Shown here in pieces: positions 36,130 through 64,000 of a stretch of 64,000 nucleotides of DNA. This DNA comes from a virus. The notes under the pieces are model-generated. The model searched no databases. It worked only from the letters and a program-made list of their open reading frames with translations, and had not been told where the DNA came from. The stretch spans positions 86,767 to 150,766 of the IMG/VR virus record IMGVR_UViG_3300048065_001187; one strand, given 5' to 3'. A program made the translations under genes and the position numbers. Positions within the stretch are counted from its first letter, which is position 1; the number at the start of each line of letters is the position of its first letter.

Positions 36130-36685
36130 TACCGCTCGAAAAGAAAAGATCTTAAAGCTTAGATCAGAGGGAAAAAGCTACAAAGAAATAGAATCTATTC
36201 TTGGTTGTTCAAAATCTACAATTTCTTATCATTGCGGAAATGGTAATGAAAAAAAGCGGGTTAAAAACGACATAAAGAAAAGGAAGCCAATTTGCAAAAA
36301 AGTTTCTAGTTTTAAAACAAGATGCTCTCGTGCAAATTATAAATTATTTCGATCTAAAGTAAAAACATTTAAAAGGCGCTCGCAATCAAAAGGTAACAAA
36401 ACAAATACTATAGTGAATAGTATATCAAAAAACTATACCTGTCAGGATGTAATTGAAAAATTCGGAAATAATCCAGTCTGCTACTTGACAGGCAAACCTA
36501 TAGATTTAGAAAAGCCCGAAACTTACAATTTAGATCATATAATTCCTGCGTCAAGAGGGGGTACGAATGATTTAAATAACCTAGGTCTTTGCATCAAAGA
36601 AGCTAATCAAGCAAAGGGTGATCTATTGATCAACGAATTGCATGATTTGTGTGAGCAAATATTACTTTGGAAATCTAAAAGTTAA
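36113..36685 (+). CDS. HNH endonuclease with N-terminal HTH
   Basis: GKSYKEI..LGCSKSTIS HTH and CYLTG...LDHIIPASRGGTNDLNNL...NQAK. Confidence 0.85.
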   Translation: MRKLNNTARKEKILKLRSEGKSYKEIESILGCSKSTISYHCGNGNEKKRVKNDIKKRKPICKKVSSFKTRCSRANYKLFRSKVKTFKRRSQSKGNKTNTIVNSISKNYTCQDVIEKFGNNPVCYLTGKPIDLEKPETYNLDHIIPASRGGTNDLNNLGLCIKEANQAKGDLLINELHDLCEQILLWKSKS

Positions 36686-37308
36686 AATATTATATACTGA
36701 ACATATTCTTGGTTTGGATAGTTCTCTAATAATATAAACTTATTTGTTTGCGGTTCAAATATAAACCATCCTTGGCTCGTAAGCACTAAGTTAACGGCAT
36801 GAAGACCGCCTGTTGCAGGGATTCTCCCAAATTCATTAACTTGTCTTACTACTACAATGCCTACTGCAAGTTCGTTTTTTGTGCCACTTTTAAAACTAGC
36901 TAAACTAATTGTTGATTTGTAAAGCATTGCATAGTTCTCGCAATCAAGAGATTCGCCTCCCTCTCCTAGTGACATTAAACCATTTTCAAATAATAATTTA
37001 TTAAACCAATTATTGAATTTCCTAAAGAAAAAATAGTCAACTTGATCGTATTTACTATCCCAAAGTAATAATTTAATATTCGTTGGAACTTTCATTGGTA
37101 CAGAGTTAAACGCTCTTTGCGTAGTGAAATGATATGCAAAATCTTTTTTAAATATTTTACTCGCTTTAGGGTCTTCTATTTTTGGAATATTTTTTAATTC
37201 ACTTAAATCTACTTTGTTGCAAGCTACCATCGAAAGACTCATGATCGCTACTAAGCATAACGATAAAATCCAAGATAATCTACTATTCTTCTTTATTATA
37301 TCTTTCAT
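36682..37308 (-). CDS. Lipoprotein with a papain/transglutaminase-like Cys-His-Glu domain
   Basis: Signal ending MVAC, then DCENYA, HAVN and FEPQ motifs. Confidence 0.65.
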   Translation of the reverse strand: MKDIIKKNSRLSWILSLCLVAIMSLSMVACNKVDLSELKNIPKIEDPKASKIFKKDFAYHFTTQRAFNSVPMKVPTNIKLLLWDSKYDQVDYFFFRKFNNWFNKLLFENGLMSLGEGGESLDCENYAMLYKSTISLASFKSGTKNELAVGIVVVRQVNEFGRIPATGGLHAVNLVLTSQGWFIFEPQTNKFILLENYPNQEYVQYIIF

Positions 37309-37480
37309 TTTCTCTCTCCTCTAGTTCTCTTTTAATTTGTGTTATTTCAGCCGCCGACATTTTTAAATATTGTTTCTTTGCAAGTATATACGCAGTCCTT
37401 ACTCTCAAATGAGGGTGAGCCATAAAATCCTTGTCCTCCAAGTGTTTTATTATTAAATAATTAATAACTTTCTCATCCAT
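37283..37480 (-). CDS. Hypothetical protein
   Basis: GTGTA 9 nt upstream of ATG 37480. Confidence 0.5.
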   Translation of the reverse strand: MDEKVINYLIIKHLEDKDFMAHPHLRVRTAYILAKKQYLKMSAAEITQIKRELEERENERYNKEE

Positions 37481-37567
37481 ATATATGGGTACACACAAAA
37501 AAAGTATTGACATTCTTTTGGTTATTTGACAGACTACAATTTTATCAATCATAAATATATATACAAA

Positions 37568-37741
37568 ATGAATACTAAATATGTAAAATTAACTGATCTA
37601 TGGAATAACGGAGAATATGCCGAGCTTGGACATATTATAAATAAAGAGGAATGGAAGCCTAGCGAAGTCGCTAAATTTTGTTCTTATTTCGCTAAATATT
37701 GCGGTCTTAATCAATTAAATATTCTTTATAAGTTTCTTTAA
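37568..37741 (+). CDS. Hypothetical protein
   Basis: ATG start, TAATG-coupled to the next ORF. Confidence 0.5.
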   Translation: MNTKYVKLTDLWNNGEYAELGHIINKEEWKPSEVAKFCSYFAKYCGLNQLNILYKFL

Positions 37742-38109
37742 TGGATAAGTTTGAATTAGCTTGGGATACATATGATTTCCATACTGCGATTGCTTGCGAG
37801 CTAGAAGGCAAGCATAGGTTGCTAGTAGATTCTTACCATAGATTTTTAGAAAATAATCTAAATCCTAGCCAAGCAAAGAAAACATATATTCGTAATAAAT
37901 TAAATAAATCCTTCAATTCGATACTTAGCACTTATAAAAAGCAACTAGATTCTATTGATGATTTAATTAAATATTATAAGACCGATAAAGATATTAGTAA
38001 TGTAAGAGAGTTGAATCCACAACTTTTATTTGATCTCAAGAATACTACCTCTACTTTAGTAGAAGAGTTGAAAGTATTCAGAAGAGAGATAAATGAAGTT
38101 TTGCGTTGA
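37741..38109 (+). CDS. Hypothetical helical protein
   Basis: ORF track. Confidence 0.55.
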   Translation: MDKFELAWDTYDFHTAIACELEGKHRLLVDSYHRFLENNLNPSQAKKTYIRNKLNKSFNSILSTYKKQLDSIDDLIKYYKTDKDISNVRELNPQLLFDLKNTTSTLVEELKVFRREINEVLR

Positions 38110-38143
38110 CAATGATTATTTTATTATATAGAGTGCTGTTATT

Positions 38144-38371
38144 ATGAAAAGAGGAAGACCAAAAGGATATAGTCCATATGTTGAAATTAAATACGAAGAC
38201 CTCGCTGATTGGGTCGGGCGCAAGACAAAAGTGCCCGTCCCAAGAAAGTGGCTTCAAGCTCTGATGGGTGAAGAAATAGAAGAGGATGAAAATACTCTTG
38301 ACAATACTCCCAAAAATGAGCATACTGAAGAGATTGTGCCGAAGATTGAATATACATTAACAAAATTCTAA
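38144..38371 (+). CDS. Small protein with an AT-hook-like RGRPKG motif
   Basis: TTGACA-N17-TAGAGT promoter at 38106. Directly upstream of ruvB. Confidence 0.6.
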   Translation: MKRGRPKGYSPYVEIKYEDLADWVGRKTKVPVPRKWLQALMGEEIEEDENTLDNTPKNEHTEEIVPKIEYTLTKF

Positions 38372-38372
38372 T

Positions 38373-39299
38373 ATGAGTAATTATTTTTCAGATTTAGTTG
38401 GTCAAGATGCAGTTAAAAGAAAGCTGACATTTTACCTTAATGCTTTCCATAAAACATCGCAAGCTCCATTTCTCTTGATGGCGGGTGCTAAAGGTTTAGG
38501 CAAAACAGAGTTCGCTAAAAACTTTGCCAAGAATCTCCACAATCAAGATGGTGAGAAGAGAGCATTTCTTGAATTAAATTGTTCAACCATAAAAAACAAT
38601 GAGCAATTCTTTGAGCAAATATTTTTGCCCTTGATTTGTGATAATGAGATAACTATTCTTTTTGATGAGTGTCACGAATTACCACAAGATTTGACAATGG
38701 CTTTCTTGAGTATTTTTAATACTGAATCAAATAGTCGTAAGAATTTTGAATGGAATGGAATGAATTTTGAATTTAATTTCATGAAGCAAACTTTTATCTT
38801 TGCCACTACTGAAACTGATAAAATATTTCCACCACTCAAAGATCGTCTTACCATAGTTGATTTTGAACCTTATAGTAAAAAAGAACTTGCAGAAATAGTT
38901 AAGCTTTGTGCCCCCGATATTTTCATAACCGATGAATGCATTCAAGAAGTCGCGACTACTATTCGGAGCAATGCTCGTAGTGCAGTAAAGCGTGCAAAGG
39001 AAATAAATCTTTATTGCGGGGCGAATGATAGTAATACTTTTGATGTTGATGATTTCAAAGAATTATCTGATACTATTGGTATTCTTCCTTTTGGATTGAC
39101 AAATACAGAGAAACAAGTATTAGAAATATTAAATGAGTGCGGTTCTGTGTCCTTAACAAGTCTCTCTGCGAAGCTAGGTCTTAGCCCTACCGCTGTTCGC
39201 AGGGATCATGAACTTTATCTCCTTAACAAAAACCTTATTGAAATAGATGGTAAACGTAAAATAACTTTTAATGGTAGAAAAATTTGCTCACAATTATGA
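38373..39299 (+). CDS. ruvB: Holliday junction branch-migration ATPase, RuvB-like
   Basis: LVGQ, GAKGLGKT, FDECH, ATT, PLKDR and a C-terminal winged helix. Confidence 0.82.
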   Translation: MSNYFSDLVGQDAVKRKLTFYLNAFHKTSQAPFLLMAGAKGLGKTEFAKNFAKNLHNQDGEKRAFLELNCSTIKNNEQFFEQIFLPLICDNEITILFDECHELPQDLTMAFLSIFNTESNSRKNFEWNGMNFEFNFMKQTFIFATTETDKIFPPLKDRLTIVDFEPYSKKELAEIVKLCAPDIFITDECIQEVATTIRSNARSAVKRAKEINLYCGANDSNTFDVDDFKELSDTIGILPFGLTNTEKQVLEILNECGSVSLTSLSAKLGLSPTAVRRDHELYLLNKNLIEIDGKRKITFNGRKICSQL

Positions 39300-39469
39300 A
39301 TAAAGACGAAAGAGAAAAGCTACGACAAGAAGTTTATGAGCTTTGGTATAACGAAAAAGATGTGAATAAGAAAGAAACCTTGCAAAGAGTTTTAGATTTA
39401 ATTGATTTTACAAACCAATCCATGAAAAAACTCAGAGAAGTTTCTAGCATATTTTCATCAATGTTATGA
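39296..39469 (+). CDS. Hypothetical protein
   Basis: ATGA-coupled to ruvB. Confidence 0.45.
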   Translation: MNKDEREKLRQEVYELWYNEKDVNKKETLQRVLDLIDFTNQSMKKLREVSSIFSSML

Positions 39470-39624
39470 AAGAACAAGAAAAAATTTATTTAAAATGTGC
39501 AGAAGAGCTAAATGAATTAGCTACTAGATTATTGCAACAAGTCAATAAAAATAAAGACTATACTCAGCAAATAAAGCAAGAATTAGAAGATGTAGAAAAA
39601 CAAATAAAATTGCTAAAAAAAATT

Positions 39625-40461
39625 TTAGAGTAAAGCGATATCAAAGTCAGCATTAACTGATCCATTATTACCATTAGCACTAATAACATTAAATATTATA
39701 TCTGATTTCGGCTCTAATTTTAATGGAAATGGGTAATCTTCTTGAATCGAATAATCTGTTCCTGCTGATGTTCTAGCAAGCACTCTAAATACTTTGTCTT
39801 TTTCTCTCACGTGTATGTCTATTGTGAATCCGATTGCCGATGAACTACCTGTGTTTTGTGCAGTAATTGTGTGCTTCAGTAAGTAACCTGTGCAGTCAGC
39901 AGGAATTGTGTATAAAGCCATTAATGTTTGATTGTTACCTGCTAAAATTTTAGCATACGTATTTACTGACCCTTTGATAGATATATCTCCAACCAAGTCA
40001 TCTACACCATTATTATATGCTCTAAAAACTCTTGACCATTTGCCCGAAAGAGCCAAAGGGGTAGTTCCTGTCAAAGTAATTTCTTCTTCTTTTTCTTCAA
40101 AATTCTCATTTAAACCTATGACAACAATTTTTTCGGTATCCGCGTTTTCTGATGAAACTATCGTTAAAGATTCCCCTGCATCGTTTGGAAATATATATTT
40201 CCCATTAGCTACTGATACTTCTGATGATTGATCGCAAATTGTATATGGTTGATCTTGGCTTACAGAGCCTGAGATTCGTTTAACACTTCCAAATTTATGT
40301 ACAAAGTTTTTCGCATTACTTAAAATGTAGCTTGACGTAATACTAGACTCTGATTGAGGAATCCAATTTGAGTCACTTTCATCCCACACATAATTAAAAT
40401 TTATATTTGTATTTCTTTCGTGTGCAAACGGATTTGTATTTGGATATTTTTGATTTGACAT
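39625..40461 (-). CDS. Beta-rich phage protein, probably structural
   Basis: VHKFG, VIGLNENF and EEITLTGTT motifs. GTGTA motif upstream. Confidence 0.55.
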   Translation of the reverse strand: MSNQKYPNTNPFAHERNTNINFNYVWDESDSNWIPQSESSITSSYILSNAKNFVHKFGSVKRISGSVSQDQPYTICDQSSEVSVANGKYIFPNDAGESLTIVSSENADTEKIVVIGLNENFEEKEEEITLTGTTPLALSGKWSRVFRAYNNGVDDLVGDISIKGSVNTYAKILAGNNQTLMALYTIPADCTGYLLKHTITAQNTGSSSAIGFTIDIHVREKDKVFRVLARTSAGTDYSIQEDYPFPLKLEPKSDIIFNVISANGNNGSVNADFDIALL

Positions 40462-40572
40462 ATTGCTTAATATATATTACACTTCTTTTTTTATGTTTAA
40501 ATATTTCAAATATTACAATTGGGGGTTGACATTAATCATTTTATTAGTTATTATGATATTTTTATGGGTTAA

Positions 40573-40722
40573 ATGAAATATGAAATAGATATATCAGAAG
40601 AAGATTTGGCAAATTGCTATACAAATCAATGGGTACTAGAATGGTGCAAGAAATATCACCCCGAAGCATTTGAAAAAGCAAAAGAGTTTATAAAAAAATA
40701 CATGGAAGAAGATGAAGAATAA
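40573..40722 (+). CDS. Small hypothetical protein
   Basis: MKYEIDISEE...WCKKYHPEAF. TTGACA-N17-TATTAT at 40526. Confidence 0.5.
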   Translation: MKYEIDISEEDLANCYTNQWVLEWCKKYHPEAFEKAKEFIKKYMEEDEE

Positions 40723-41065
40723 ATGGTGGATATTATTATTGTTTACATTTGGTTGTCAATCGAGTAAGGTTGAAGAAGAAATTGATTTACCTCCACCTCC
40801 GCCATTACCTACGCATTTTCTCATTCCAAATGCTCCACCAAATTTTATACCCGATATAAGAGAAATCCAAATAAACTCTGTACCTCATCCATTTCGTATT
40901 TCGGGGACATATGTCGTTTGGGTTAATAAAAAAAAGTTGAACTTAAATAAGCACCAAGTCGATCAATTAGTAAAGCATTTAGATTTGTCAATGGAAATAC
41001 CAAAGAATACAGCCCAAATACATAGCGGAGAAGGATGGTTATTTCCTTTTGATATAGATGAGTGA
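40712..41065 (+). CDS. Proline-rich lipoprotein
   Basis: LLFTFGC lipobox and PPPPPLP. Confidence 0.6.
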   Translation: MKNKWWILLLFTFGCQSSKVEEEIDLPPPPPLPTHFLIPNAPPNFIPDIREIQINSVPHPFRISGTYVVWVNKKKLNLNKHQVDQLVKHLDLSMEIPKNTAQIHSGEGWLFPFDIDE

Positions 41066-41468
41066 AAAAGATTTACCCGATAATGTCGCACCAAATCCTC
41101 ACTCATTACCTTATGCAAGTAATTTAGGCGCTCCTGTCATTCGCCCCGATCATAGTCTTGGTGGATGGAAATTAGGTGCAGTACATACTGCAAATAAACA
41201 CTACGAAGAGCGATTTAATAAATTAAAACAAGAGTTTGAGGGGTTAGCGGAAGATTACAAGTGGAATCAAATAATATTTAACGCAGAGATGCGCTTCAAA
41301 CCTGTTATTGGTAAGGAATATTTTTTATATAAAAAGAGTGATGGAAGTTTTTACTTGACTTTATTTGCCCCTCATGAGAAGATAGGTGGAAATGAAGGAT
41401 ACCAAGGTAAATTTAGACTTAATTATGATAATAGATGGGAGCAAATAAAATGTGGAACTACCGAATAA
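41058..41468 (+). CDS. DUF2452-like protein
   Basis: LPYASNLGAP...A..RFKPVIGKEYFLY motif. Confidence 0.65.
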   Translation: MSEKDLPDNVAPNPHSLPYASNLGAPVIRPDHSLGGWKLGAVHTANKHYEERFNKLKQEFEGLAEDYKWNQIIFNAEMRFKPVIGKEYFLYKKSDGSFYLTLFAPHEKIGGNEGYQGKFRLNYDNRWEQIKCGTTE

Positions 41469-41731
41469 TACAAACTAAACCTAAAGAATATGGGTTATAT
41501 GAAGTTATCTATAATGAAGATGGAGATATTTCTGCTTATACAGAAAACCCCGAAGTTATAGCGGAAAGCCCCGAAGATTTACTTTTGAGTCTTAGGCTTA
41601 TGCTAGATGATGCGCAAAAATCTTACAATAATATCTTAAAATCAGATGAAATAGAATTTGCCCCTCTTTACGATGAAAGTGAGATGAGTGAAGCAATGAC
41701 TATTGAAGAATTTAAAAACATAAACTCATAA
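41450..41731 (+). CDS. Phage hypothetical protein (WNYRI...EVIY)
   Basis: Recurrent phage-type motif. Confidence 0.6.
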   Translation: MWNYRIIQTKPKEYGLYEVIYNEDGDISAYTENPEVIAESPEDLLLSLRLMLDDAQKSYNNILKSDEIEFAPLYDESEMSEAMTIEEFKNINS

Positions 41732-41907
41732 GTAAAAACATTGTATCTACTACAATATCTCTTTCTAAAAAAAATAAAGATAAAGATACTATAATATACA
41801 AACTTCTTTCAAAATCAGCGTCCACTACTTATGAGGATAGCATATTACTGCAATCGCTGAAACAATAGATAGCCACAGAAATACATCCCACAATTCCATT
41901 ATCAAGC

Positions 41908-42141
41908 TCATTTGTTTAATTTTTCGTAAATCTTGTGGATGTCTTGCCTTCTGTCTTCTAATAGTTTTGATGTTTGATCCCATCTTTCTGCATCTCTAGC
42001 GCCATTTTTTGCTAAACTTACCTCTATTTCTCTTAATTTTGTAGAAACTTTTTCTATTTTAATACTTTCTCGTTTTAAATAAAAAGCTATAATGGATACC
42101 ATCGCTCCAATCCCTAATATAATAATTTTTTCTATCTCCAT
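41908..42141 (-). CDS. Single-TM coiled-coil protein (holin/XhlA-like architecture)
   Basis: N-terminal TM then coiled coil. GTGTA 9 nt upstream. Confidence 0.5.
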   Translation of the reverse strand: MEIEKIIILGIGAMVSIIAFYLKRESIKIEKVSTKLREIEVSLAKNGARDAERWDQTSKLLEDRRQDIHKIYEKLNK

Positions 42142-42163
42142 AATAATAAATACACATAAAGGC

Positions 42164-42192
42164 TTGACAAGAGTTTCTTTATAGGCTAAAGT
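42164..42192 (+). promoter_or_regulatory. sigma70-type promoter, leaderless spacing
   Basis: TTGACA-N17-TAAAGT, ATG 6 nt downstream. Confidence 0.7.
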
Positions 42193-42198
42193 ACAATC

Positions 42199-43206
42199 AT
42201 GACACAAATACTAGGACTAACTTGCATAAGTGAAATACTAAAAGAAAAGGATAAAGCAAAATATTCTTTTCGCACAATGACTCGCAAACGCTTTAATGAT
42301 TTGTGTAACCAAGAAGGTAGAGATGAAGCAGTCAATCAATTATCTGAAAGAATTTTGCACAATGTTATTGTTACTCAATATATTGTCAATCATTGTCATT
42401 CCTCAAATCTTAGGCATTATCGTCTTAGTTCTGCTCTTTTTCCTCTCCTTACCGACCAAACTTTGGATATTTCTCTTGAAGATTTACCGCACAAAGCAAG
42501 AATAGAACAAGAGCTAAAGTTAGTAGGTTTAATTGCGGAAAAGTTTGATATATCAATTGGTTCTCACCCCGATCAATTTAATGTTCTTGCATCTCCCGAT
42601 AGAGACAAAGTTAATCGTACAATAAACGAACTTAATTTTCAAGCAAGCGTTCTTGATATGATTGGTTTACCTCAAGATCATACTGCACCAATGAATATTC
42701 ATATTAACTATTCGCCAAAAGAAGATGAAACATTGGAAGTTGTTGCTACTAGATTTTTTCGCAACCTTTCTATGTGTGATAAAGGTGTTTACAAGCGTCT
42801 TACTATTGAAAACGAAGACAAAGGTTTCTTTAATGTAGATAACTGCATGGCATTTAGTGATTACTTGTTTAAAACATTTGGTGCAATGATCCCTGTTTGT
42901 TTTGACAACTTACATCATATGTGCAACCCATCAGAAGAGTCTTGTATTAAGTGGCAAGCCGAGCGTTGTGCATATACTTGGGTTAGTCAAGGGGATGGTG
43001 ACAGCAATTTCATTGCTCCTGTCTTTCATTGGTCAGAAGGCAATCCACAAAAACCTCGCTCTCATGCAGATTATTTTTCTTTTATGAATGCTCCACCATA
43101 CATTGCTATTGAACCTAACAAACCTGTGAAGTGGGAATGTGAAGTTAAGCAAAAAGACAAAGCAATTCAAGTCTTGCGAAATAATCTAGCAGAAAAAAGC
43201 GCGTGA
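42199..43206 (+). CDS. uvsE: UV-damage endonuclease UvsE
   Basis: HPDQF, NIH, LTIENED, FDNLHH, FHWSE, RSHAD and EVKQKD catalytic motifs are intact. Confidence 0.92.
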   Translation: MTQILGLTCISEILKEKDKAKYSFRTMTRKRFNDLCNQEGRDEAVNQLSERILHNVIVTQYIVNHCHSSNLRHYRLSSALFPLLTDQTLDISLEDLPHKARIEQELKLVGLIAEKFDISIGSHPDQFNVLASPDRDKVNRTINELNFQASVLDMIGLPQDHTAPMNIHINYSPKEDETLEVVATRFFRNLSMCDKGVYKRLTIENEDKGFFNVDNCMAFSDYLFKTFGAMIPVCFDNLHHMCNPSEESCIKWQAERCAYTWVSQGDGDSNFIAPVFHWSEGNPQKPRSHADYFSFMNAPPYIAIEPNKPVKWECEVKQKDKAIQVLRNNLAEKSA

Positions 43207-43280
43207 TCAATTATTTAATTAATATTTTATTTATTTTGGCAATCGTAGCATTTAGTTGTTTATTAATGCTTGACTCTTGA
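43203..43280 (+). CDS. 25-aa membrane micropeptide
   Basis: MINYLINILFILAIVAFSCLLMLDS, GTGA-coupled. Confidence 0.4.
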   Translation: MINYLINILFILAIVAFSCLLMLDS

Positions 43281-43304
43281 TTAACAATTTGCTAAGGTGT
43301 TGCT

Positions 43305-43784
43305 ATGGTAAAAATAATAGATGGCAATCTTCTTAATTTTCCAAATGGCATTGACTTTATAGCTCATTCATGCAACACTCATAATGTTATGGGGGCAGGA
43401 ATTGCTAGGGAAATAAAATATCGCTACCCTAATGCTTACTCTGCTGATTGTCATGCAATGATGGATGGTGATAATGTTTTGGGCGGTTTTAGTTTTTCGG
43501 TGACTGATGCTACTCAAAGCAAAGGTATCTACAATATGTATACCCAAGATAAAATCGGGGGCAAAAGAGCAGTTAATTATGAAGCATTTTATGTTGCATT
43601 GAATAAAGTAGCGGGTCATATCGAATGGCAATCCAAGCATGAAGAAGTAGAAAAGACTTTAGGCTTGCCTTGGGGTATTTCTTGTGGACTCGCAGGGGGA
43701 AGTTGGAATGTAATTTTTTCAATGATAAATGATATTTTGATTGACAGAAAGTTTAAAACATATATCGTTAAGTATGATGAATGA
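43305..43784 (+). CDS. Macrodomain (ADP-ribose binding/hydrolase) protein
   Basis: GNLL, AHSCN...MGAGIA and ISCGLAGG motifs. TTGACT-N17-TAAGGT promoter. Confidence 0.85.
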   Translation: MVKIIDGNLLNFPNGIDFIAHSCNTHNVMGAGIAREIKYRYPNAYSADCHAMMDGDNVLGGFSFSVTDATQSKGIYNMYTQDKIGGKRAVNYEAFYVALNKVAGHIEWQSKHEEVEKTLGLPWGISCGLAGGSWNVIFSMINDILIDRKFKTYIVKYDE

Positions 43785-44565
43785 ATTGGATTCTAGGTTT
43801 CTTGCTCCTTTTGGAGATGTCCTTCCTTGTTTACATCAGCATATAGTATCAAATTATCATCCATCGTTGCTTGATGATGTTTGGGATGATCAAGTGAGAG
43901 AGCTTGAATTATATATGAATGAATATGGAAACAAGAAGATTGCGCCTGCAAATTTTCACTTTGCACAAGATATAATTCTCTTATCTTTACTATGTTTGCA
44001 TACTAATTATCAATTTTTATCTAAAAATGATTTTAAAAAATGGATAAATTCTCGATATTACTTAAAAAGTTTTGATTTTCAACCTCAAAGTTACGCATAT
44101 ATTGAATTTTATATTCATCACGATAATAAAATGTTTTTCTACATAGGTAAAGGAACAGAAAAAAGGGTTAAACAACATACAGCGAATGGCGGTCAAAATT
44201 TATTTCATAAACAGCAAAGAGTTAAAGTATTCTCTATTGAGGTTTTAGCCTTTTTGGATTTCCCAAAATTACCATTTTTTTACGAAAATCTTTTTTATAA
44301 TCATTTTGCTTATTTATGCGAAGAGTTGCAATCAAATTTTGATTTTACTTTTGATCTTGAGTTTAAAGGTCGTCACTATTCTGATTATAATTACTCTGAT
44401 GACATGGTTGATTTGTTTTGTGCAAATTCAGCTTACTTGAAGTCTAAATTAGAAAAAACTGCTTCGGTTTTAGGAGAGATTCATAAGCAATATTTTTCAT
44501 ATGAATTTAGTAAAATCTCAAATGATATTAAAAAAGTCTTGACAGAAAATTTAAAACGTATATAG
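43774..44565 (+). CDS. GIY-YIG-like (LEM-3 type) nuclease domain protein
   Basis: YAY...FFYIGKGTEKRVKQH...YE motif. Confidence 0.55.
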   Translation: MMNELDSRFLAPFGDVLPCLHQHIVSNYHPSLLDDVWDDQVRELELYMNEYGNKKIAPANFHFAQDIILLSLLCLHTNYQFLSKNDFKKWINSRYYLKSFDFQPQSYAYIEFYIHHDNKMFFYIGKGTEKRVKQHTANGGQNLFHKQQRVKVFSIEVLAFLDFPKLPFFYENLFYNHFAYLCEELQSNFDFTFDLEFKGRHYSDYNYSDDMVDLFCANSAYLKSKLEKTASVLGEIHKQYFSYEFSKISNDIKKVLTENLKRI

Positions 44566-44574
44566 TTAGATACC

Positions 44575-55070: not shown

Positions 55071-55274
55071 ATGAATATAAATCCCGAACATCAAGCTAAA
55101 GAAGAACAAATCAGAAACCTAGAGCAAGAACTTACTGAAACTCAAGAAGAAGTAATGCAATATCAAAACCTCGGAGATAATCATACTGCTAATGTATATG
55201 TCCGAAGGTGTGCGGAGATAAAAAAATCTATTGATACTTTAAAAATGGAAATTTCAGATAACAATGAATCTTGA
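55071..55274 (+). CDS. Hypothetical coiled-coil protein
   Basis: ATG start. Confidence 0.5.
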   Translation: MNINPEHQAKEEQIRNLEQELTETQEEVMQYQNLGDNHTANVYVRRCAEIKKSIDTLKMEISDNNES

Positions 55275-55478
55275 ACAAGCATTTGACATCGTAATGAATG
55301 AAGCAGAAGTTTCTGCTCTTGGAGAAAAGAGTGATGAACACTTAAAAGTTCTACTCGCAACAGAAGTAATGCAAGCGTTTTACGAAGAGCATGGGCATCA
55401 CTTTGCCAACTTTTCCCTTGACAAAGCAGAGCAAGTTTCATAGATTACAATCATTAATCACAAACACAAGGAATAAAA

Positions 55479-56099: not shown

Positions 56100-56213
56100 T
56101 GCCAATTTATTATAGCGATGATGTATTATTATATGTTGGTGATCCAAAAGGTTTTCAAGATTACATAAAACAAGCAGAATTAAAAAAACTAGAAGAAGAC
56201 ACAACAAATTCTA

Positions 56214-56312
56214 ATGATGACTAATTTGCCCGAAATAGTACAAACAACAAGTTTACTCTTGGGTTTAGTTGCAGTAGTTGTTTTTCTTTTAATATTAGCA
56301 AGTCATGAATAG
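56214..56312 (+). CDS. 32-aa membrane micropeptide
   Basis: MMTNLPEIVQTTSLLLGLVAVVVFLLILASHE. Confidence 0.45.
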   Translation: MMTNLPEIVQTTSLLLGLVAVVVFLLILASHE

Positions 56313-56487
56313 AATCGTAATGGATGATTATGACGCAGGGTTTATGGATGCGGTAAAATTATTAGAGAAAAAATTAGACGTAATGATTGAAAAATACGAA
56401 GATATTTTAAAAAAATATGACTACATAGAAGAAGCAAGGGATGTACAATTACTTCTTGATGTAAAGAGAAAACTTTTTGACGAATAG
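56305..56487 (+). CDS. Hypothetical protein
   Basis: ORF track. Confidence 0.5.
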   Translation: MNRIVMDDYDAGFMDAVKLLEKKLDVMIEKYEDILKKYDYIEEARDVQLLLDVKRKLFDE

Positions 56488-56524
56488 TATTGACAGGGTT
56501 TGAGTTTTTGCTTAGTGTGTTGAG

Positions 56525-56740
56525 ATGAATTACTCGATAATAGAAGGGTGTATTAGGCAAAGTATGGATTTACCAATAAATAAATCAGAGATAATAGTAA
56601 AACAGAGAGGCAAATTATGGGTGATTAAATCCCATCATGCAGAAAATATTAATTTATTAACTCGCAGAAAAACTCTTGACAGGGTTGATCTTTTATGTTT
56701 AACTGATCTTGGTTTTAAAATTAAATACGAAAATAAATAA
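56525..56740 (+). CDS. Hypothetical protein
   Basis: TTGACA-N17-TAGTGT, 6 nt upstream. Confidence 0.5.
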   Translation: MNYSIIEGCIRQSMDLPINKSEIIVKQRGKLWVIKSHHAENINLLTRRKTLDRVDLLCLTDLGFKIKYENK

Positions 56741-56752
56741 GGAGAAAATATT

Positions 56753-57181
56753 ATGGGATTAGATATGTATGCTTATGCTCGTCCACCTCGCAAGAGAAAT
56801 AGTGACGAAGATGTCTCAATTTGCGATTGGAGAAAACATAATCGCTTGCAAGGTTGGATGGAAGACTTGTGGGAAGCTAAGGGTAGACCAAATTGGAAAC
56901 CATCTGAAGAAGAGAATGACTTTAGTGGTGATTTTAATTCTGTTGAGTTGCAATTAACTAGGGCAGACCTTTATGATTTGCAAGATGATATTGTAAATTT
57001 TAATTTGCCCGAATCAAATGGATTCTTTTGGGGTAGTGATTCTTATTTTTGGCATAATGAAGATGGTGAACCATATCCCGATAACGAATATTATTACAAA
57101 GAACAAGATTTAAATTTTGTGGCAGAAGCACATAAAATGCTTGACAAGGGTTATCGAGTATTTTATACTTGTTGGTACTAA
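56753..57181 (+). CDS. Phage protein of the MGLDMY...WRKHNxLxGW family
   Basis: MGLDMYAY, WRKHNRLQGWM, LPESNGFFWG and FYTCWY. AGGAG RBS. Confidence 0.75.
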   Translation: MGLDMYAYARPPRKRNSDEDVSICDWRKHNRLQGWMEDLWEAKGRPNWKPSEEENDFSGDFNSVELQLTRADLYDLQDDIVNFNLPESNGFFWGSDSYFWHNEDGEPYPDNEYYYKEQDLNFVAEAHKMLDKGYRVFYTCWY

Positions 57182-57495
57182 TGAAATATTTTACCTTAAC
57201 AATCTTACTTTTTGCAGGATGCAATCATTCTTCTAATCTTCAGCCCGAAGATACAAAAGTTTCTCGTTCAGTAGATATGCAAGAAGAAATAAATTATTTA
57301 CTATCCTTAGATGAAGCGTACAAAATGGAAGAAAAAATGTATTTAGAGGAAATAAGAAAAGCTCAACTAAATGATGATGAAATCGCATTTCAATTTTTCA
57401 TTAGAGAATACGCTAAAGTAAAAAGGTTAGATTTACCTGAATGGATCAAAAAAGAACCAAACTATGTTGAGGGTGGAGTAAATATAAAATATTAA
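57181..57495 (+). CDS. Lipoprotein, paralogue of 32839..33033
   Basis: LFAGC lipobox and shared YxxE(L/I)xxAxxNxDxxAxx(Y/F)FxxEYxK motif. Confidence 0.6.
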   Translation: MKYFTLTILLFAGCNHSSNLQPEDTKVSRSVDMQEEINYLLSLDEAYKMEEKMYLEEIRKAQLNDDEIAFQFFIREYAKVKRLDLPEWIKKEPNYVEGGVNIKY

Positions 57496-57629
57496 TTTTG
57501 GGTTCACCTCTTTCTGATCCTATTCCTACGGAACTACCCTGTCTGATCAACTAAAAAAGACTAGAAAGTAATTCGATTACTACTATATCGGAGTTAGTCA
57601 TGGATACTCTCCATGCAAATATTTAAACT

Positions 57630-57890
57630 ATGAAAATAAAATTAGGATTAAGAGGAAGTTCAGATGCGGTAAATCATATTTTAATAAAAATAGATGATCT
57701 TACTTTAATGACTACTGAAAATTTATTTCTTGCGGGGGAAGAGTATAGAAATAAAACAGGAAAAAATATTGTGGAATTATTAGATTGTTTATCCAAAGAT
57801 CATGAAATATTAATTAAAGAAAATATAGCAAAGGAAGCAGAAAGAGAATTAGGGTTAAAAAACGGAGAATTACAAAAATATTCAAAATAG
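57630..57890 (+). CDS. Hypothetical protein
   Basis: ORF track. Confidence 0.5.
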   Translation: MKIKLGLRGSSDAVNHILIKIDDLTLMTTENLFLAGEEYRNKTGKNIVELLDCLSKDHEILIKENIAKEAERELGLKNGELQKYSK

Positions 57891-57928
57891 TATTGACACA
57901 CAATCAAAACTAATCTAATTTACAAACC

Positions 57929-58162
57929 ATGAATACCGCACAAGCATTTATAGATAGTATTAACCAATCAATCGCCAATGCCGAGAAGATAGCAAACTCG
58001 ATCCCCAAGAAGGGTCTTAATGTTTATCTCGACAAATCAACTATGGTCATGCAAACATTCAATGATCCTAGTGCGTTTGCTCATGCCAAGAAAGTTACTG
58101 CAAGAGCAGGGCAATCAAGTTGTCTTCGCAATGTATTAGATGCAGGGGGAAGATTGCAATAA
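57929..58162 (+). CDS. Hypothetical protein
   Basis: TTGACA-N17-TAATTT, 7 nt upstream. Confidence 0.55.
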   Translation: MNTAQAFIDSINQSIANAEKIANSIPKKGLNVYLDKSTMVMQTFNDPSAFAHAKKVTARAGQSSCLRNVLDAGGRLQ

Positions 58163-58272
58163 AGCATGATAAAAGATGCAGAACAATAGTTTTGACACTC
58201 AAATACAAAGTTTTTACCCAAAACACATCAAAATGCTTGACATATCATGCAAATTAACCTAGTTTCAAAAAT

Positions 58273-58536
58273 ATGAAACAACCAATATACGATGGCACAA
58301 ATGAAGATGAGTGCGAATATTACGACAATGTAATCATGGAATTACCAACATACGAAGAATATATAAAAGATATGTCATTAGTAGATCAAATAAAATTCTA
58401 TTTTGATGTTGACATTGATAACTATTTAGGTGATCCTTGGGAAATACTCGCAGAATGTGCAGTTGATCCACATTGGCTAAGTGAGTTTAAAGTTAATTTT
58501 AAAGAATATCTACAAGAAAGGGAATACATACAATGA
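58273..58536 (+). CDS. Acidic hypothetical protein
   Basis: TTGACA-N17-TAGTTT, 7 nt upstream. Confidence 0.55.
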   Translation: MKQPIYDGTNEDECEYYDNVIMELPTYEEYIKDMSLVDQIKFYFDVDIDNYLGDPWEILAECAVDPHWLSEFKVNFKEYLQEREYIQ

Positions 58537-58763
58537 AAGAATTAAAAGAAAAATTAAATAAAGTTATCTCCAAACAAGTTGAGATGGTAAACAAACATGG
58601 CTCAAATACTCTCTCTACTTGTGATCATTACAATTGGGATAAAGACATTTGGAATCATAGATATTCTATTGTTGACAAGCTAATTGATCTAGGTTTTAAT
58701 GTCGATACTCAAATGAATTGGGAAGTATTAGATATAACAATTACAAAGGAATTAAAACTATGA
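58533..58763 (+). CDS. Hypothetical protein
   Basis: ATGA-coupled. Confidence 0.5.
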   Translation: MKELKEKLNKVISKQVEMVNKHGSNTLSTCDHYNWDKDIWNHRYSIVDKLIDLGFNVDTQMNWEVLDITITKELKL

Positions 58764-58960
58764 AAGTAACAAATATTAGATATTTTAAAACAAACAAGGG
58801 GGTTGGTTATCAATGCAAAACTAACATTAAAGATGTAGAAATATGCAATGATGGCGCAGGTGGAGCAACTTATGTAGATGGAGATTTAAAAAAATTAATT
58901 AAAGAATATACTGAATGGGATTTAGAAGATTTAATTGATCAATACGAAAATAATTCTTGA
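58760..58960 (+). CDS. Phage hypothetical protein (NDGxGGAT motif)
   Basis: ATGA-coupled, with NDGAGGATY. Confidence 0.55.
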   Translation: MKVTNIRYFKTNKGVGYQCKTNIKDVEICNDGAGGATYVDGDLKKLIKEYTEWDLEDLIDQYENNS

Positions 58961-58991
58961 CACAATAATAAAAAGGAGATAAGGTACGAGT

Positions 58992-59165
58992 ATGAATATA
59001 AATCACATATACGAAGATAGTGCAATTGCAGATAAATTTTATTACGATAATTTCACAGGGACTTATTTCCTGCATGATGAGGAATGGGAAGAACCAATGG
59101 AATTTACTGAAGACGAATTAATTAACGAAGGAATTTATTTAAATGAATACTGCCAAAGAATATAA
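58992..59165 (+). CDS. 57-aa acidic protein (below track cutoff)
   Basis: MNINHIYEDS...EEWEEPMEFTEDEL. TTGACA-N17-TAAGGT, 6 nt upstream. Confidence 0.6.
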   Translation: MNINHIYEDSAIADKFYYDNFTGTYFLHDEEWEEPMEFTEDELINEGIYLNEYCQRI

Positions 59166-59361
59166 TATAGAAATAGGCTTGACTCCAAGCGACATTCAAG
59201 CTATTCTCGATGGAGAAATGTCAACGCTTCACTTTTTACCAACTGATGATACTGATTACAAAGATAAGATTAGCGTTCATCTTAAACCAATTAGTGAAGA
59301 TGCAACTTTATCAGAGCAAATGAATTTAGTTGTTGACACATGGAGTAAAAAAGAGTTATAG
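59143..59361 (+). CDS. Hypothetical protein
   Basis: ORF track. Confidence 0.5.
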   Translation: MNTAKEYNIEIGLTPSDIQAILDGEMSTLHFLPTDDTDYKDKISVHLKPISEDATLSEQMNLVVDTWSKKEL

Positions 59362-59382
59362 TATCGACATATTAATAACTAT

Positions 59383-59634
59383 ATGTTTACAAAAGGGAAA
59401 AATATCGACATGAATTACATAACAGAAAAAATCAGTTTTAATGTTCCACAAAATGGTGGAGATCAATATCGCTTGTATGAGTGTGTTGATCAAGTCGCAG
59501 ATTTAATTGATATGCATTTCGGTACTGCAATAGAAGATACAACTAACATTCACAATTTAATTGAAGAAGAAATTAAAGCAAGTAAACTTAGAGAAGTAAA
59601 ATATAATAGATTAGAAAATATAAATGGTGGGTAG
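59383..59634 (+). CDS. Hypothetical protein
   Basis: Promoter at 59333. Confidence 0.5.
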   Translation: MFTKGKNIDMNYITEKISFNVPQNGGDQYRLYECVDQVADLIDMHFGTAIEDTTNIHNLIEEEIKASKLREVKYNRLENINGG

Positions 59635-59637
59635 TAG

Positions 59638-59835
59638 ATGATTAAACAATTAGAAAACGCAGAAACTTTTAAAGAAATCTTTGATCTTTATGTGCAAGAG
59701 CTAGAGAAAACAGGAGAAAAAGTAACTTACAATAAATTTATAGTTAAAAATTCTCTTGACAATCTTGCCAACTTCTTAGATAATAGTCCACTTAGCGTAT
59801 CAACATGGGGAAAACTAGATAGAGAAAAAAGTTAA
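59638..59835 (+). CDS. Hypothetical protein
   Basis: ORF track. Confidence 0.45.
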   Translation: MIKQLENAETFKEIFDLYVQELEKTGEKVTYNKFIVKNSLDNLANFLDNSPLSVSTWGKLDREKS

Positions 59836-59907
59836 AAAAAGTGTTGACACAACTTAAACATCTGTCATACTGAAACCATATTTAATTAATCACACAAGGA
59901 AAACACA

Positions 59908-62211
59908 ATGATCATCACACAAAACAAATCCAAAGAAGTAGTAAGTTCACACGATTTCGAGCAAGTCAATTGCACAATTGATGCCGAAGATATGCGTTAT
60001 GTTGCTTCTCTTCTTCGTAACAACTATTCTAATACTCGTCTTGCAGTCGTTCGTGAGATTAGTGCCAATGCACTAGACGCCAATGCTGAAGCAGGAGTAA
60101 CTCGCCCAATCGAAATTAAGTTGCCAACTTCAATGAATCCAACATTTGCAGTTCGTGACTTCGGGGGTGGACTAAGTCAAGAAGATGTTTTCGGTCTTTA
60201 CTCTAAGTATGGCAAGTCAACCAAGCGCACATCCAACAATTATATTGGTGCTTTCGGTATCGGTAAATTTGCTCCACTTTCTTATGGTGACAACTTTACT
60301 TGCGTTTCTTTTCATAACGGACTAAAAACTTCTTACAATGTATTTGTCGATGAGAATGACGATACTAAGATCACAAAGTTGTTTGAAGAACCAAGCGATG
60401 AACCAACAGGTTTATCTATTGAAGTTGCAGTTTCAGAAGATGATCGTAAAGAGTTTAGAAATGTTGTGCAAAATTTCTTTCGTTTCTTTTCTGACTCTGA
60501 TATGCCAAAATTTCTCGGAGTTGAAGAAGACTTTATACAAACTCCTAAAAAAGTTTTATCAAGTAAAACTGATGAATGGTTCTTTGCGGAAGACGAGAAT
60601 CGTGGATATGGTTATAATTATTACTCTCATGTTCTTATGGGCAGAGTTGCTTACCCTATTGATCCAAATGCAATAAATGTAGAAAATTTTGTATCCAATG
60701 AAAGTTCTCGCAGAATAGTTCAACAACTTTTACAACAAAGTAATTTCTACTTTCGTGTTCCTCTTGGTTCAGTAAGATTGCATCATAGTCGTGAGTCGCT
60801 AGAATACAACAAAGCAACTCAAAAAGAAATTTGTGCGATTCTTTACAAAGTTAGTCAAGATATTCAAACTATTGCAAAAGAAAAACTTGCCGATAGTGAA
60901 GATTTATACGATGCAAAGAAAAACTACGCTCAAGTTGTTAATACTCTACCTTATCAAGTAAGAGGGGTATTCGAGAATAGTTTCGAGTGGAATGGTATCA
61001 GTATTACAGATTCCACATTTCAAAGAGATTATCAATTACAAGATGATCTAATTATTACTGATTACGAGAAAATTGAAGATAAAGATTCTCGCAATGGTTT
61101 CAAGGTAAAAGCCACTAAAACAAATCGCATTTATTGTCAAGACAATTATCTTGTGATGATTCAAGATGTTGATTCATCTCATGGTAACAATCTTAGAGTT
61201 CGCACATTGATGAATGGTTTACCTGACCTCAAAGGTGTTTATATTGTCCATGCAACATCCGAATGTGGTAAATCAGAAGTTTACGATAATTGGCAATTCG
61301 ATCTTGTTGACGCAAAACACAAGAGATATTCTTCTCAAGTAGAGAAGGAAAAGATTGTGCGCAACAAAGTTTCGGGTACAAGTCGTGCTTCTATTCCATT
61401 GTTCAAGATGAAGACTGACAAACCAAGTTATGCTTATCGCAATGCAGATTATTGGCAAAATGTCAATGAACCAATCAATTCACTTGAGCTAGACGAAGTT
61501 GAAGGTTCTGTCAATGGTAAAATCATTTATGTTCCAATCAAGAACTACAAAGTTGATAGTGAATCTTATGATCTTGACAGAGTTTACAAAATATGTAAAG
61601 GTATCCGCAAAAATGCTGAAGATAATTCAGACGAAAAAAATCTTCAATTATTCGGTGTTCGTGCAGGTGATGTAAAGAAATTGGATAAAAGCACATGGGT
61701 ATCATTCTTTGATTTTTATCTTGACTATTGCAAAAACATCATTCGCAAAAACAAGAAAGAATGTCAATCAGCATACAAGACAATTGAATTCCAAAAATCT
61801 TCTGATAATAACTTTAGTGAATATCGTTGGACTTATGGTCAATTGTTTACTAATGATTCGTTTGATATTTCTACGCTTGATGATAATCATTTATTTGCTC
61901 GTTGTGCAGAGAATTGGAATCTTCTCATGGAAGAGTCTACAACTGATCGTAAATTTAATGTTGCAATCAATGTAGTTAGTCTAGGTGATCAAGCATGGTT
62001 AGATGATGTATTGGATACAAAAGTTGATACTGAATCAGTTATGCAAGAGTTTAAATTACTTGATAAAAATTATCCTTTACTTAAAGTTGTCGGAAATCAG
62101 GTTAATTCTTGGGTAAATCTAAAGCAAGATAATGACAAGAATGTGACTAACCAAATTATTTTAGAATATATTTCCTTGTGTGATATGAAAGGGGGAGAGG
62201 GGAATGTGTGA
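59908..62211 (+). CDS. rIIA: rIIA-like protein (GHKL ATPase)
   Basis: YSN..AVVREISANALDA, RDFGGG, YGKSTK, IGAFGIG and SRESLEY. Adjacent rIIB. Confidence 0.88.
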   Translation: MIITQNKSKEVVSSHDFEQVNCTIDAEDMRYVASLLRNNYSNTRLAVVREISANALDANAEAGVTRPIEIKLPTSMNPTFAVRDFGGGLSQEDVFGLYSKYGKSTKRTSNNYIGAFGIGKFAPLSYGDNFTCVSFHNGLKTSYNVFVDENDDTKITKLFEEPSDEPTGLSIEVAVSEDDRKEFRNVVQNFFRFFSDSDMPKFLGVEEDFIQTPKKVLSSKTDEWFFAEDENRGYGYNYYSHVLMGRVAYPIDPNAINVENFVSNESSRRIVQQLLQQSNFYFRVPLGSVRLHHSRESLEYNKATQKEICAILYKVSQDIQTIAKEKLADSEDLYDAKKNYAQVVNTLPYQVRGVFENSFEWNGISITDSTFQRDYQLQDDLIITDYEKIEDKDSRNGFKVKATKTNRIYCQDNYLVMIQDVDSSHGNNLRVRTLMNGLPDLKGVYIVHATSECGKSEVYDNWQFDLVDAKHKRYSSQVEKEKIVRNKVSGTSRASIPLFKMKTDKPSYAYRNADYWQNVNEPINSLELDEVEGSVNGKIIYVPIKNYKVDSESYDLDRVYKICKGIRKNAEDNSDEKNLQLFGVRAGDVKKLDKSTWVSFFDFYLDYCKNIIRKNKKECQSAYKTIEFQKSSDNNFSEYRWTYGQLFTNDSFDISTLDDNHLFARCAENWNLLMEESTTDRKFNVAINVVSLGDQAWLDDVLDTKVDTESVMQEFKLLDKNYPLLKVVGNQVNSWVNLKQDNDKNVTNQIILEYISLCDMKGGEGNV

Positions 62212-62234
62212 TCCCCTCTCTCTCACATTTTTTT
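62191..62234 (+). terminator. Intrinsic terminator overlapping the rIIA stop
   Basis: GGGGGAGAGGGGA/TCCCCTCTCTCTC hairpin followed by a T-run. Confidence 0.65.
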
Positions 62235-62243
62235 AAAAAAGTA

Positions 62244-62272
62244 TTGACAGGTTATAGAAAACAGATTATAGT
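62244..62272 (+). promoter_or_regulatory. sigma70-type promoter for rIIB
   Basis: TTGACA-N17-TATAGT. Confidence 0.75.
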
Positions 62273-62305
62273 GACCATATTATTAATTACGAAATAAAAA
62301 ACAAA

Positions 62306-63412
62306 ATGAATCAAGTACCATATCAATTAACTGAAAATTCACTCACAATCTTTTGGGAAGGTAAACCTTATACCTTACGCAAAGATCATGTTAACTTCCA
62401 ACTTGCCAAGCAAGCTATTCTTGATGCTAGATACGATGATCTAGGTGATTTGCTCGATATTGCCAAAGCGGTTGAGAACTTTATCGAAGGTGACATTGAA
62501 GTCAAGGACGAAGTTGTTTACTACAAAGGTCATCGTTTGCACGGCGTCGTTGTAGATAAATTACTCGAAATGCTTCGTGCAGGAATGAAAGATTCTACTC
62601 CTCTCACCAATTTCATTACTCGCTTGCAGTCTAATCCAAGCGCAAATTCAGTAAATGAATTGTATGCTTTTATGAGTTATAAGTCTCTTGCCAATACTTC
62701 TGAAGGTAAAGTTTTGGGCTACAAAGGTGTACAATCTGATTATTGGAGTACAACAGGTAATGCCGATACAATTGTATTGCAAGGCGAAACCAATGATCGT
62801 CATCAAATTCTTAATGAAGTTGGCTCGACTATCGAAGTTGCTCGTAGATGCGTTGATGACAATAAGGATAATCATTGTTCTTTTGGTCTTCATGTTGGTT
62901 CATACGATTATGCTAATAATTGGGCAGGAGAGAATGGTAAATTGCTTGTTGTTGAGTTTGATCCTGCTGATGCAGTATCTGTACCAACTGATTGTGATTT
63001 TCAGAAACTTAGGGTATCTAAGTACAAGGTTATCTCTGATATTACCGATACTCGTAAAGAGTTAAATAAGCCTGTCTATGAGCCTAATAAGCCCATTTAT
63101 GGTTCAGATGATGATTTTGTAGATGAAGGCGTTTGGGATGATGATGATGATGAGGATTTTGATTATGTCGATCAAGAAAATGAAGATCACGATATGGATC
63201 AGACAGATAAAGACTTACATAATTCAATATCTAATTATATTACTAATAAGCACAACGATGGCTTGCATCCAACCTTAAAACATATCGCAGACCTTAGAGT
63301 TTGTAAAAATGAAAGCTTGACTTGCAAAGAAATTGCAAATATAGTTGAAGAATTAGGGTTTGAAGTTGAAGATAATGATGAAAGTCCCTTTTATTTATTA
63401 CGAGTATTTTAA
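62306..63412 (+). CDS. rIIB: rIIB-like protein
   Basis: NPS...ELY.F, GYKGV, CSFGLHVG, DPADAVSVP and KLRV motifs. Confidence 0.88.
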   Translation: MNQVPYQLTENSLTIFWEGKPYTLRKDHVNFQLAKQAILDARYDDLGDLLDIAKAVENFIEGDIEVKDEVVYYKGHRLHGVVVDKLLEMLRAGMKDSTPLTNFITRLQSNPSANSVNELYAFMSYKSLANTSEGKVLGYKGVQSDYWSTTGNADTIVLQGETNDRHQILNEVGSTIEVARRCVDDNKDNHCSFGLHVGSYDYANNWAGENGKLLVVEFDPADAVSVPTDCDFQKLRVSKYKVISDITDTRKELNKPVYEPNKPIYGSDDDFVDEGVWDDDDDEDFDYVDQENEDHDMDQTDKDLHNSISNYITNKHNDGLHPTLKHIADLRVCKNESLTCKEIANIVEELGFEVEDNDESPFYLLRVF

Positions 63413-63414
63413 TT

Positions 63415-63648
63415 ATGGAATATAATATTGAAAAAAGAATTATTGATGTAGCACTAGAACTTAAATCTACAAGTGAAGTTGTTGGTGAAGAAATGAGAAA
63501 GTTTCAAGAAACTAATCCAACGCAAGAAGAGATGGAGAAAAGAATGCCCGAAATCATGAAACCTAATCAAGATATTGCCACAAAGTTATTTTCTTTACTA
63601 GATGAATATGAGTTTATCAATGGTTCATCCGATAAGGTAAATGGATAA
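63415..63648 (+). CDS. Hypothetical protein
   Basis: ORF track. Confidence 0.5.
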   Translation: MEYNIEKRIIDVALELKSTSEVVGEEMRKFQETNPTQEEMEKRMPEIMKPNQDIATKLFSLLDEYEFINGSSDKVNG

Positions 63649-64000
63649 GTTTATGGTCAAAGAGTATATGCGCAAACACATTGCAAGTATACGTGCCATA
63701 ACTATTGAAGATTTAGAAAAAGATTCGGGGCTAAATAAAGATACAAATCAAGATTCTAATGACGATATTATAGAAGATAATAAACAAGATTTAAAAACAA
63801 ATATTGAAGATTGAGTTTTTGTAATAATATAATAAAATTTGTTGTCGTAAAATGGGTATTGTGGCGAGGTTTTTTTGTTTCCCTTGGTTAATTTCATCAC
63901 CTGTTCAGTAATCACATAAAAGCTGAACATCTTTATAATTTCACACGCTCTCTCACATAATTACATTAATAATTCCATTAATCCATTATACAACATATAC

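Follow-up and report, generated by a model that had tools for sequence, protein, structure and literature searches.

Why would one block of a phage genome be cleared of short DNA words that the rest of the same genome carries at the usual frequency? This question is raised by the last 64 kb (hereafter the window) of IMGVR_UViG_3300048065_001187, a viral contig of 150,766 bp from sea-water metagenomes. The phage encodes a tail sheath and large tail proteins, a DnaE-type polymerase, a DnaB helicase, rIIA, rIIB and many glycan genes, and about 160 of its 184 open reading frames (ORFs) lie on the + strand (87% co-oriented). No close cultured relative was found, and a nucleotide comparison of the domain described below with the phage collection returned no match. 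In the right-hand part of the window, a block of mostly small early genes is almost devoid of the word CCAG/CTGG and of a series of restriction-type palindromes. This block, here called the purged domain, was analyzed for its word content, borders, genes and conservation.

Loss of short words from a single block

CCAG/CTGG sites are dense up to position 32,571 and are found afterwards only at 35,453, 36,473, 44,813 (CCAG) and 47,697 (CTGG). The counts given by the first-pass annotation, which had been made by manual scan, were reproduced exactly. In 36,480–64,000, the two observed copies compare with 63 expected from a maximal-order Markov model, 88 from a first-order model and 145 from the rate in the rest of the genome. 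For 36,234–64,000 together with about 2.4 kb past the contig end, two copies were present versus 92–119 expected. Synonymous codons were also shuffled, which preserves every protein and the regional codon usage. In the region's own ORFs, CCAG occurred 3 times as compared to 66 ± 7 after shuffling (lowest of 200 shuffles, 38), while the other 119 ORFs showed no depletion (628 observed versus 609). Depletion thus survived both kinds of null model and was not uniform, the other 120 kb being neutral; it is regional, highly significant and not due to composition or codon use. Since all eight 5-mer extensions of CCAG were purged, the 4-bp word itself is the target, and avoidance of CCWGG alone is insufficient, which bears out the earlier proposal of an asymmetric target.

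A 28.2-kb core (37.4–65.6 kb) was then searched greedily and without bias for depleted words, both exact and degenerate. Besides CCAG (2 versus 119 expected, P about 1e-48), the search returned ACNGT (0 versus 54), GCNGC (0 versus 37), RGATCY (0 versus 20–26), GGCC (0 versus 13–24), RCATGY (0 versus 12–22), CCGG (0 versus 8–16), GGNCC (0 versus 10–20), GATATC (1 versus 11) and CASTG (1 copy). CCTGA, CTSAG and CTGTA were partially depleted. The absence of CCGG, GGCC and GCWGC, suspected from the scan, was confirmed with a count of 0 for each in 36,480–64,000. The control words GATC, TGCA, CATG, CTAG, GANTC and CAGG/CCTG were near expectation in the core, and CAGG/CCTG remained common as had been noted (84 observed versus 57, maximal-order Markov). 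The retention of GATC (97 copies) alongside the loss of RGATCY shows that the effect is highly word-specific. GCGC behaved in the reverse manner, with 62 copies in the rest of the genome versus 116 after synonymous shuffling, and 23 versus 26 in the purged domain; in the domain of relatives, it was two to three times enriched in some and fully purged in others.

The purge is visible in codon choice. Pro before a codon starting with G was never encoded by CCA in the core (0 of 46; CCC 23, CCT 23), as compared to 195 of 445 elsewhere, in line with the CCC preference described before. In the same manner, Leu CTG never precedes a codon starting with G, a codon ending in C never precedes CAG, and a codon ending in C precedes Trp (NNC-TGG) in 0 of 100 cases in the core versus 82 of 473 elsewhere. 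For five dipeptides, every possible coding sequence contains one of the banned words: Ala-Ala (GCNGC), Thr-Val (ACNGT), Gly-Pro (GGNCC), Pro-Gly (CCNGG) and Trp-Pro (GGCC). None of them occurs in the 7,740 residues of the core, where amino-acid frequencies predict 15.6, 19.4, 10.4, 10.4 and 3, respectively. The reverse dipeptide Val-Thr is present 15 times in the core, and the rest of the proteome is normal for these dipeptides. Selection thus reached beyond codon choice to the sequence of the proteins.

To place the purge in a wider context, relatives were collected as rIIB homologues on 80 viral contigs. In all 47 relatives with rIIB identity of at least 60%, the same words were missing upstream of rIIB, with lineage-specific word sets. 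At 54% identity or less, the words occurred at normal frequency or only a subset was purged. GCGC, CGCG, GATC, CTAG, ACGT and CCTGA were purged only in some lineages (CCTGA in most relatives), and the purge of CCAG, CCGG and ACNGT also differed among lineages. Two contigs with at most 54% identity (L063 and L064), for example, lack GGCC, GCNGC and GGNCC and carry 0–1 CASTG, but retain CCAG, CCGG and ACNGT. Such lineage-specific sets are expected if the restriction repertoires of the hosts differ. Individual early regions were extreme for single words: GATC was found 0–1 times versus 27–44 expected in L046 and L061, and CTAG twice versus 25 expected in L047 and L048.

Seven near-complete genomes (184–214 kb) each contain exactly one domain, with a core of 20–32 kb (11–16% of the genome) and a CCAG-free zone of 33–45 kb, the longer shoulder usually lying on the right. 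A fixed "ruler" length for the core was considered and rejected, since the length is only roughly constant. The left border is kept in nine further contigs. The early genes are syntenic and conserved across the near-complete genomes; thus, the domain is not foreign DNA. CCGG is missing across the entire genomes of about 200 kb of the relatives G002 and G004, whereas it is present outside the early domain in the phage studied here and in the relative G001. The sites surviving in the seven genomes showed no orientation bias (62 CCAG versus 60 CTGG). Sites in one orientation only are an escape route from type III restriction, but not a requirement.

Borders, promoters and genes of the purged domain

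The borders were determined by a two-change-point likelihood fit on the contig and its extension, and positions beyond 64,000 are given in extended coordinates, i.e., window numbering carried past the contig end on matching metagenome contigs. Four of these (L006, L007, L011 and L012) match the last kilobases at about 99–100% identity and then extend by more than 13 kb, and contigs from three public runs also cross position 64,000. The fit yielded a nested domain: a core in which all words are purged, defined by nine words other than CCAG (ACNGT, GCNGC, RGATCY, GGCC, CCGG, GGNCC, RCATGY, CASTG and GATATC), lies inside a wider CCAG-free zone (Table 1). The extent of 36,480–64,000 proposed earlier therefore held for the purge within it, but not for the stop at 64,000, since the extending contigs carry the purge further. 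The 150.8-kb record is rated 100% complete, yet it is incomplete. As compared to G001 (213,830 bp; rIIB about 93% identical), about 51 kb are missing between the contig end and its start, including the large terminase gene, and the true genome size is about 200–214 kb.

Promoters of the host type were clustered in the same part of the genome. TTGACA occurs 53 times in the promoter-cluster region versus 17 expected from the rest of the genome. The clustering of host-type promoters at 33.8–74.2 kb places the purged domain in an early region. Just to the right of the core (67.4–74.8 kb extended; L011:2690-10080), six copies of a GC-rich palindromic intergenic repeat of about 100 nt were found with a spacing of 1.2–2.2 kb. 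In each copy, two hairpin-like arms flank a GC-rich core of the GGCGGGCCAGGCCGCC type, and a T-rich sequence resembling a promoter follows the copy. By its letters, the repeat resembles a cassette-border or terminator-promoter module. The ORFs between the copies are still CCAG-poor. A search for repeats at the left border revealed nothing notable.

Table 1. Positions of the purged domain, its promoters and selected genes (window numbering; strand where given)
Feature	Position	Strand	Remarks
Core purged domain	36,234-66,434 (last ~2.4 kb beyond contig end)		30.2 kb; nine non-CCAG words, 3 sites vs. 8.4 per kb outside
Wider CCAG/CTGG-free zone	32,634-70,834 (extended)		38.2 kb; 8 sites vs. 5.2 per kb outside
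Host-type (sigma-70-like) promoter cluster, TTGAC-N17-19-TANNNT	33813..63317, on to ~74.2 kb	all +	Pattern matches, rare elsewhere
GCNGC, single survivor	37350..37354		Left edge of core
C-5 cytosine DNA methyltransferase	26617..28164	+	Pfam; outside purged domain; strain-specific
Two overlapping ORFs	35584..36685	+	Sigma-70 region 2 (181 aa); region-4-like helix-turn-helix and HNH nuclease domain (190 aa); Pfam; left border of core
AAA+/RuvB-like ATPase, C-terminal winged helix	38373..39299	+	Kept in all relatives
DUF2452 match	41058-41468		Early ORF
Small very acidic ORF (isoelectric point 4.1-4.5)	41435..41731	+	One of about ten kept across the clade
UvdE-type UV endonuclease	42199..43206	+	Kept in all relatives
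Macro-domain-like protein	43305..43784	+	PHROG 335, annotated "phosphatase"; weak match
Strain-specific island, three large genes (274, 301, 899 aa)	43741..48217	+	
Further small acidic ORFs	48492-48830, 52663-52947, 54866-55063, 58273-58536, 59143-59361		
rIIA (767 aa) and rIIB (368 aa)	59908..63412	+	Near right edge of core; rIIB is the anchor for relatives

Three of the four sites that survive in the core (CCAG at 44,813, CASTG at 46,369 and CTGG at 47,697) lie in the strain-specific island, and the location of both CCAG/CTGG survivors in this group of large genes had been pointed out in the first-pass annotation. The island is the only strain-specific insertion among the early genes. It has no homologue in the seven near-complete relatives, and its part encoding the 899-aa protein (45,335–48,002) had zero coverage in two other sea-water populations (runs X6 and X8). 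The island is recently acquired.

The small acidic ORFs had no family match in Pfam or PHROG and are candidate DNA-mimic anti-restriction proteins; anti-defence genes among the small ORFs had been predicted in the first-pass annotation. Matches of other early ORFs included one MazE/AbrB-type antitoxin (E 5.5e-08) and weak macro-domain and DpnD/PcfM-like matches. None of the 51 early ORFs compared with Pfam and PHROG matched a family annotated as a T5 pre-early protein. At the left border, the two overlapping ORFs may represent a sigma gene into which a homing nuclease has inserted, or else a factor made of two parts.

Proposed exposure of the early block and its alternatives

The strand symmetry of the purge, the restriction-type palindromes, the untouched control words and the lineage-specific word sets together indicate selection, in place on a conserved gene block, by restriction-type readers of double-stranded DNA. 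Type III methyltransferases are known to read asymmetric words of 4–5 bp, including CGAG and CCTGA, and CCAG and CCTGA, being short and asymmetric, are words of this kind (PMC4525171). We propose that the domain is an early gene block that would be transcribed by the host polymerase and in which selection may have removed, from both strands, the sequences that many host nucleases of restriction type recognise. Among these words would be several palindromes of 4–6 bp like those of type II systems and, with CCAG, at least one short asymmetric word like those read by type III systems. The other 85% or so of the genome, which carries the words at chance frequency, would have to be safe for another reason, and the likeliest reason would be timing. 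The early block may be naked and unmodified in the cell before the remaining DNA, as a result of polar or two-step entry like that of T5 and T7; entry from the left border along the direction of transcription would be most consistent with the data, and the near-uniform gene orientation suits it. Restriction would then be neutralised by early products before the remaining DNA becomes vulnerable. Exposure of the early block ahead of the rest, with staged entry as the favoured route, is considered slightly more probable than not. Of the ideas put forward in the first-pass annotation, restriction selection on early DNA is well supported, while the idea that this is the first-entering DNA of a staged injection is plausible but unproven, no terminus having been found.

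Several observations weigh against staged entry. First, the genome ends do not fit easily. The right end of the window is an assembly break and not a genome end, G004 closes as a circle through an 844-bp overlap inside a 706-aa ORF, the two ends of G001 abut inside the domain, and the domain is internal in several long contigs. Terminal repeats were absent from the contig ends of the phage studied here and of G001 (assembled contigs only), and a search of the contigs for genome termini located no physical end. The genome may thus be circularly permuted and packaged by a headful mechanism, and in a genome of this kind no segment reliably enters first (PMC12455610). Second, both borders have CCAG-only shoulders, while a single terminus should give one abrupt edge, and the six repeats of about 100 nt carry GGCC, CCGG, GCNGC and CCAG, i.e., words that are banned next door. 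Third, the 51 early ORFs contained no known anti-restriction family of Pfam or PHROG. With no terminus, circle-like assemblies and shouldered borders, staged entry is a step that we infer. If packaging is by headful, other explanations are needed, i.e., shielding of late DNA or rescue after cutting. The 203-kb contig of G002 (L121, L131) has both ends in a gene with tandem repeats of about 264 nt, which probably explains why this assembly did not close. Prediction of the packaging type from the large terminase was attempted and proved uninformative, since the nearest cultured relatives (phages of Bacillus, Clostridium and Lactococcus) are only 22–28% identical.

Shielding would not require staged entry: the whole genome would enter, and co-injected proteins or a compartment would cover all but the early block, which is left bare for the host RNA polymerase. 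This would reconcile a genome that assembles as a circle with one fixed vulnerable domain, and it would account for the fuzzy borders with CCAG-only shoulders and for the match between the domain and the host-promoter cluster. However, no candidate shielding protein was identified, the strong co-orientation of the genes suits polar entry at least equally well, and we know of no tailed phage that shields all but one segment of its DNA. Shielding is therefore regarded as unlikely, although it is the strongest of the alternatives.

Rescue after cutting is a less likely account. Here, cuts outside the early block would be survivable by means of early inhibitors, ligation and recombination, while cuts in early genes would be fatal. 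Ligation-based tolerance of restriction has been discussed for T5-like phages (PMC8594841), and the domain encodes the repair-type UvdE endonuclease and the RuvB-like ATPase. However, at about 13 sites per kb for these words, the DNA outside the domain could be broken into many fragments by a matching enzyme, and the domain showed no gene for a ligase or for end protection. Moreover, the loss is complete and extends to banned dipeptides, which implies that even one cut would kill.

Avoidance of modification was considered next. The words could be targets of phage or host modification, or of type IV nucleases, and the early block would remain unmodified and hence readable or uncut. GGCC, CCGG, GCNGC and CCWGG are classic targets of C5-methylases, and the phage studied here has a C5 methyltransferase. 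This gene is missing from G001, G002 and G004, which share the purge; being strain-specific, it does not explain a purge that is clade-wide. Neither N6/N4 or Dam-type methyltransferases nor the hypermodification genes ThyA-like and TGT/DpdA were found. Avoidance of modification would in any case still have to explain why a single segment alone is vulnerable, and it is judged very unlikely. Self-methylation as the protector of the late genome was rejected as well, since methyltransferases are sporadic; judged by gene content, the DNA outside the domain owes its safety neither to methylation by the phage nor to known hypermodification. The C5 methyltransferase gene and the following 293-aa ORF (26617-29035) are an insertion relative to G001 and behave as a mobile cassette, and the enzyme has a long variable region (about 190 aa) between motifs VIII and IX.

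It is highly improbable that the phage avoids its own early sequence-specific nucleases, which would destroy host DNA so that phage DNA then in the cell must be site-free. T5 does degrade host DNA from its first-step-transfer segment while the remaining genome is still outside (PMC10644984), an HNH-domain ORF lies at the left border, and the word sets vary by lineage; however, ten or more distinct phage nucleases would be needed where only one HNH ORF was seen, and this ORF is missing from several relatives with the purge. An artefact, whether from a chimera in the assembly or from recent import of foreign DNA of different composition, to which the slightly lower GC content of the domain (about 32.5% versus 35.5% elsewhere) might point, can practically be dismissed, because many independent contigs from different samples span both borders, the early genes are syntenic across the clade, and the loss of RGATCY with GATC kept is specific to words.

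Relation to known systems

If exposure of the early block comes first, the purge is a sequence-only marker of the DNA that a phage exposes first and can be searched for across uncultured viruses. For an abundant, large group of marine phages without a cultured member, it predicts that the genome is delivered in order or shielded selectively. The purged words would list the probable restriction repertoire of the host of the phage, and the search for new anti-restriction proteins narrows to about 60 small genes. In addition, restriction pressure can shape protein sequence and not only codon choice. A more far-reaching version is offered only tentatively, as it is more doubtful: a clade of marine myovirus-type phages of about 200 kb may deliver or expose its genome in two phases, with a leader of 30–45 kb as the largest first-exposed segment known and five dipeptides banned from about 60 proteins. 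The CCAG purge would then point to a host defence that recognises an asymmetric 4-bp word, is highly prevalent and has not been described before. If the genomes are circularly permuted, the pattern would instead point to a new kind of shielding of all but the early genes.

The closest parallel is found in T5 and BF23, in which a site must be located in the first-step-transfer DNA for restriction to act (PMC10644984). As in these phages, a subgenomic segment with host-type promoters and many small genes is free of sites that are tolerated elsewhere (PMC10644984). The repeat-rich, non-coding injection stop signal at the inner border of T5 may have a counterpart in the six repeats of about 100 nt, which are spread between genes here. 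T5 is a siphovirus of 120 kb whose segment of about 8–10 kb lies inside a terminal repeat, and its two-step transfer has been proven. By contrast, the domain described here occupies 30–45 kb of a myovirus-type genome of about 200 kb, with nested borders and a purge of at least ten words; neither a terminus nor a terminal repeat was found in the contigs, and no T5-like pre-early protein family was matched in Pfam or PHROG.

T7-like phages, including the Marinomonas Murciavirus, likewise have co-oriented early genes and host promoters at the leading end, which in the phage studied here is a candidate leading end. In Murciavirus, it is only the motifs of the first-injected region that determine sensitivity, and restriction is disarmed by early products (PMC12455610). 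Those phages are 40-kb podoviruses whose ends are defined, and the affected stretch spans a few kb with single type I motifs, whereas a battery of words of 4–6 bp is purged here. In conjugative plasmids, according to PMC12455610, the leading region enters first, is poor in restriction targets and is rich in anti-defence genes; plasmid DNA, however, enters single-stranded, and the present case is a virus. Genome-wide avoidance in phages (Rusinov et al. 2018, as cited in PMC8594841) resembles the purge in the type of words concerned and in its selection signature. Unlike such avoidance, the purge described here is limited to about 15% of the genome, the remainder being neutral, and surveys of avoidance have disregarded where in the genome the sites lie (PMC12455610). 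Thus, the principle that first-entering DNA avoids restriction sites is already known, and the domain is a large, multi-word variant of the rule of T5 and T7. What is new is its scale of 30–45 kb, the at least ten purged words, the banned dipeptides, the nested borders, its occurrence in a large uncultured group of marine phages and its conservation in dozens of genomes.

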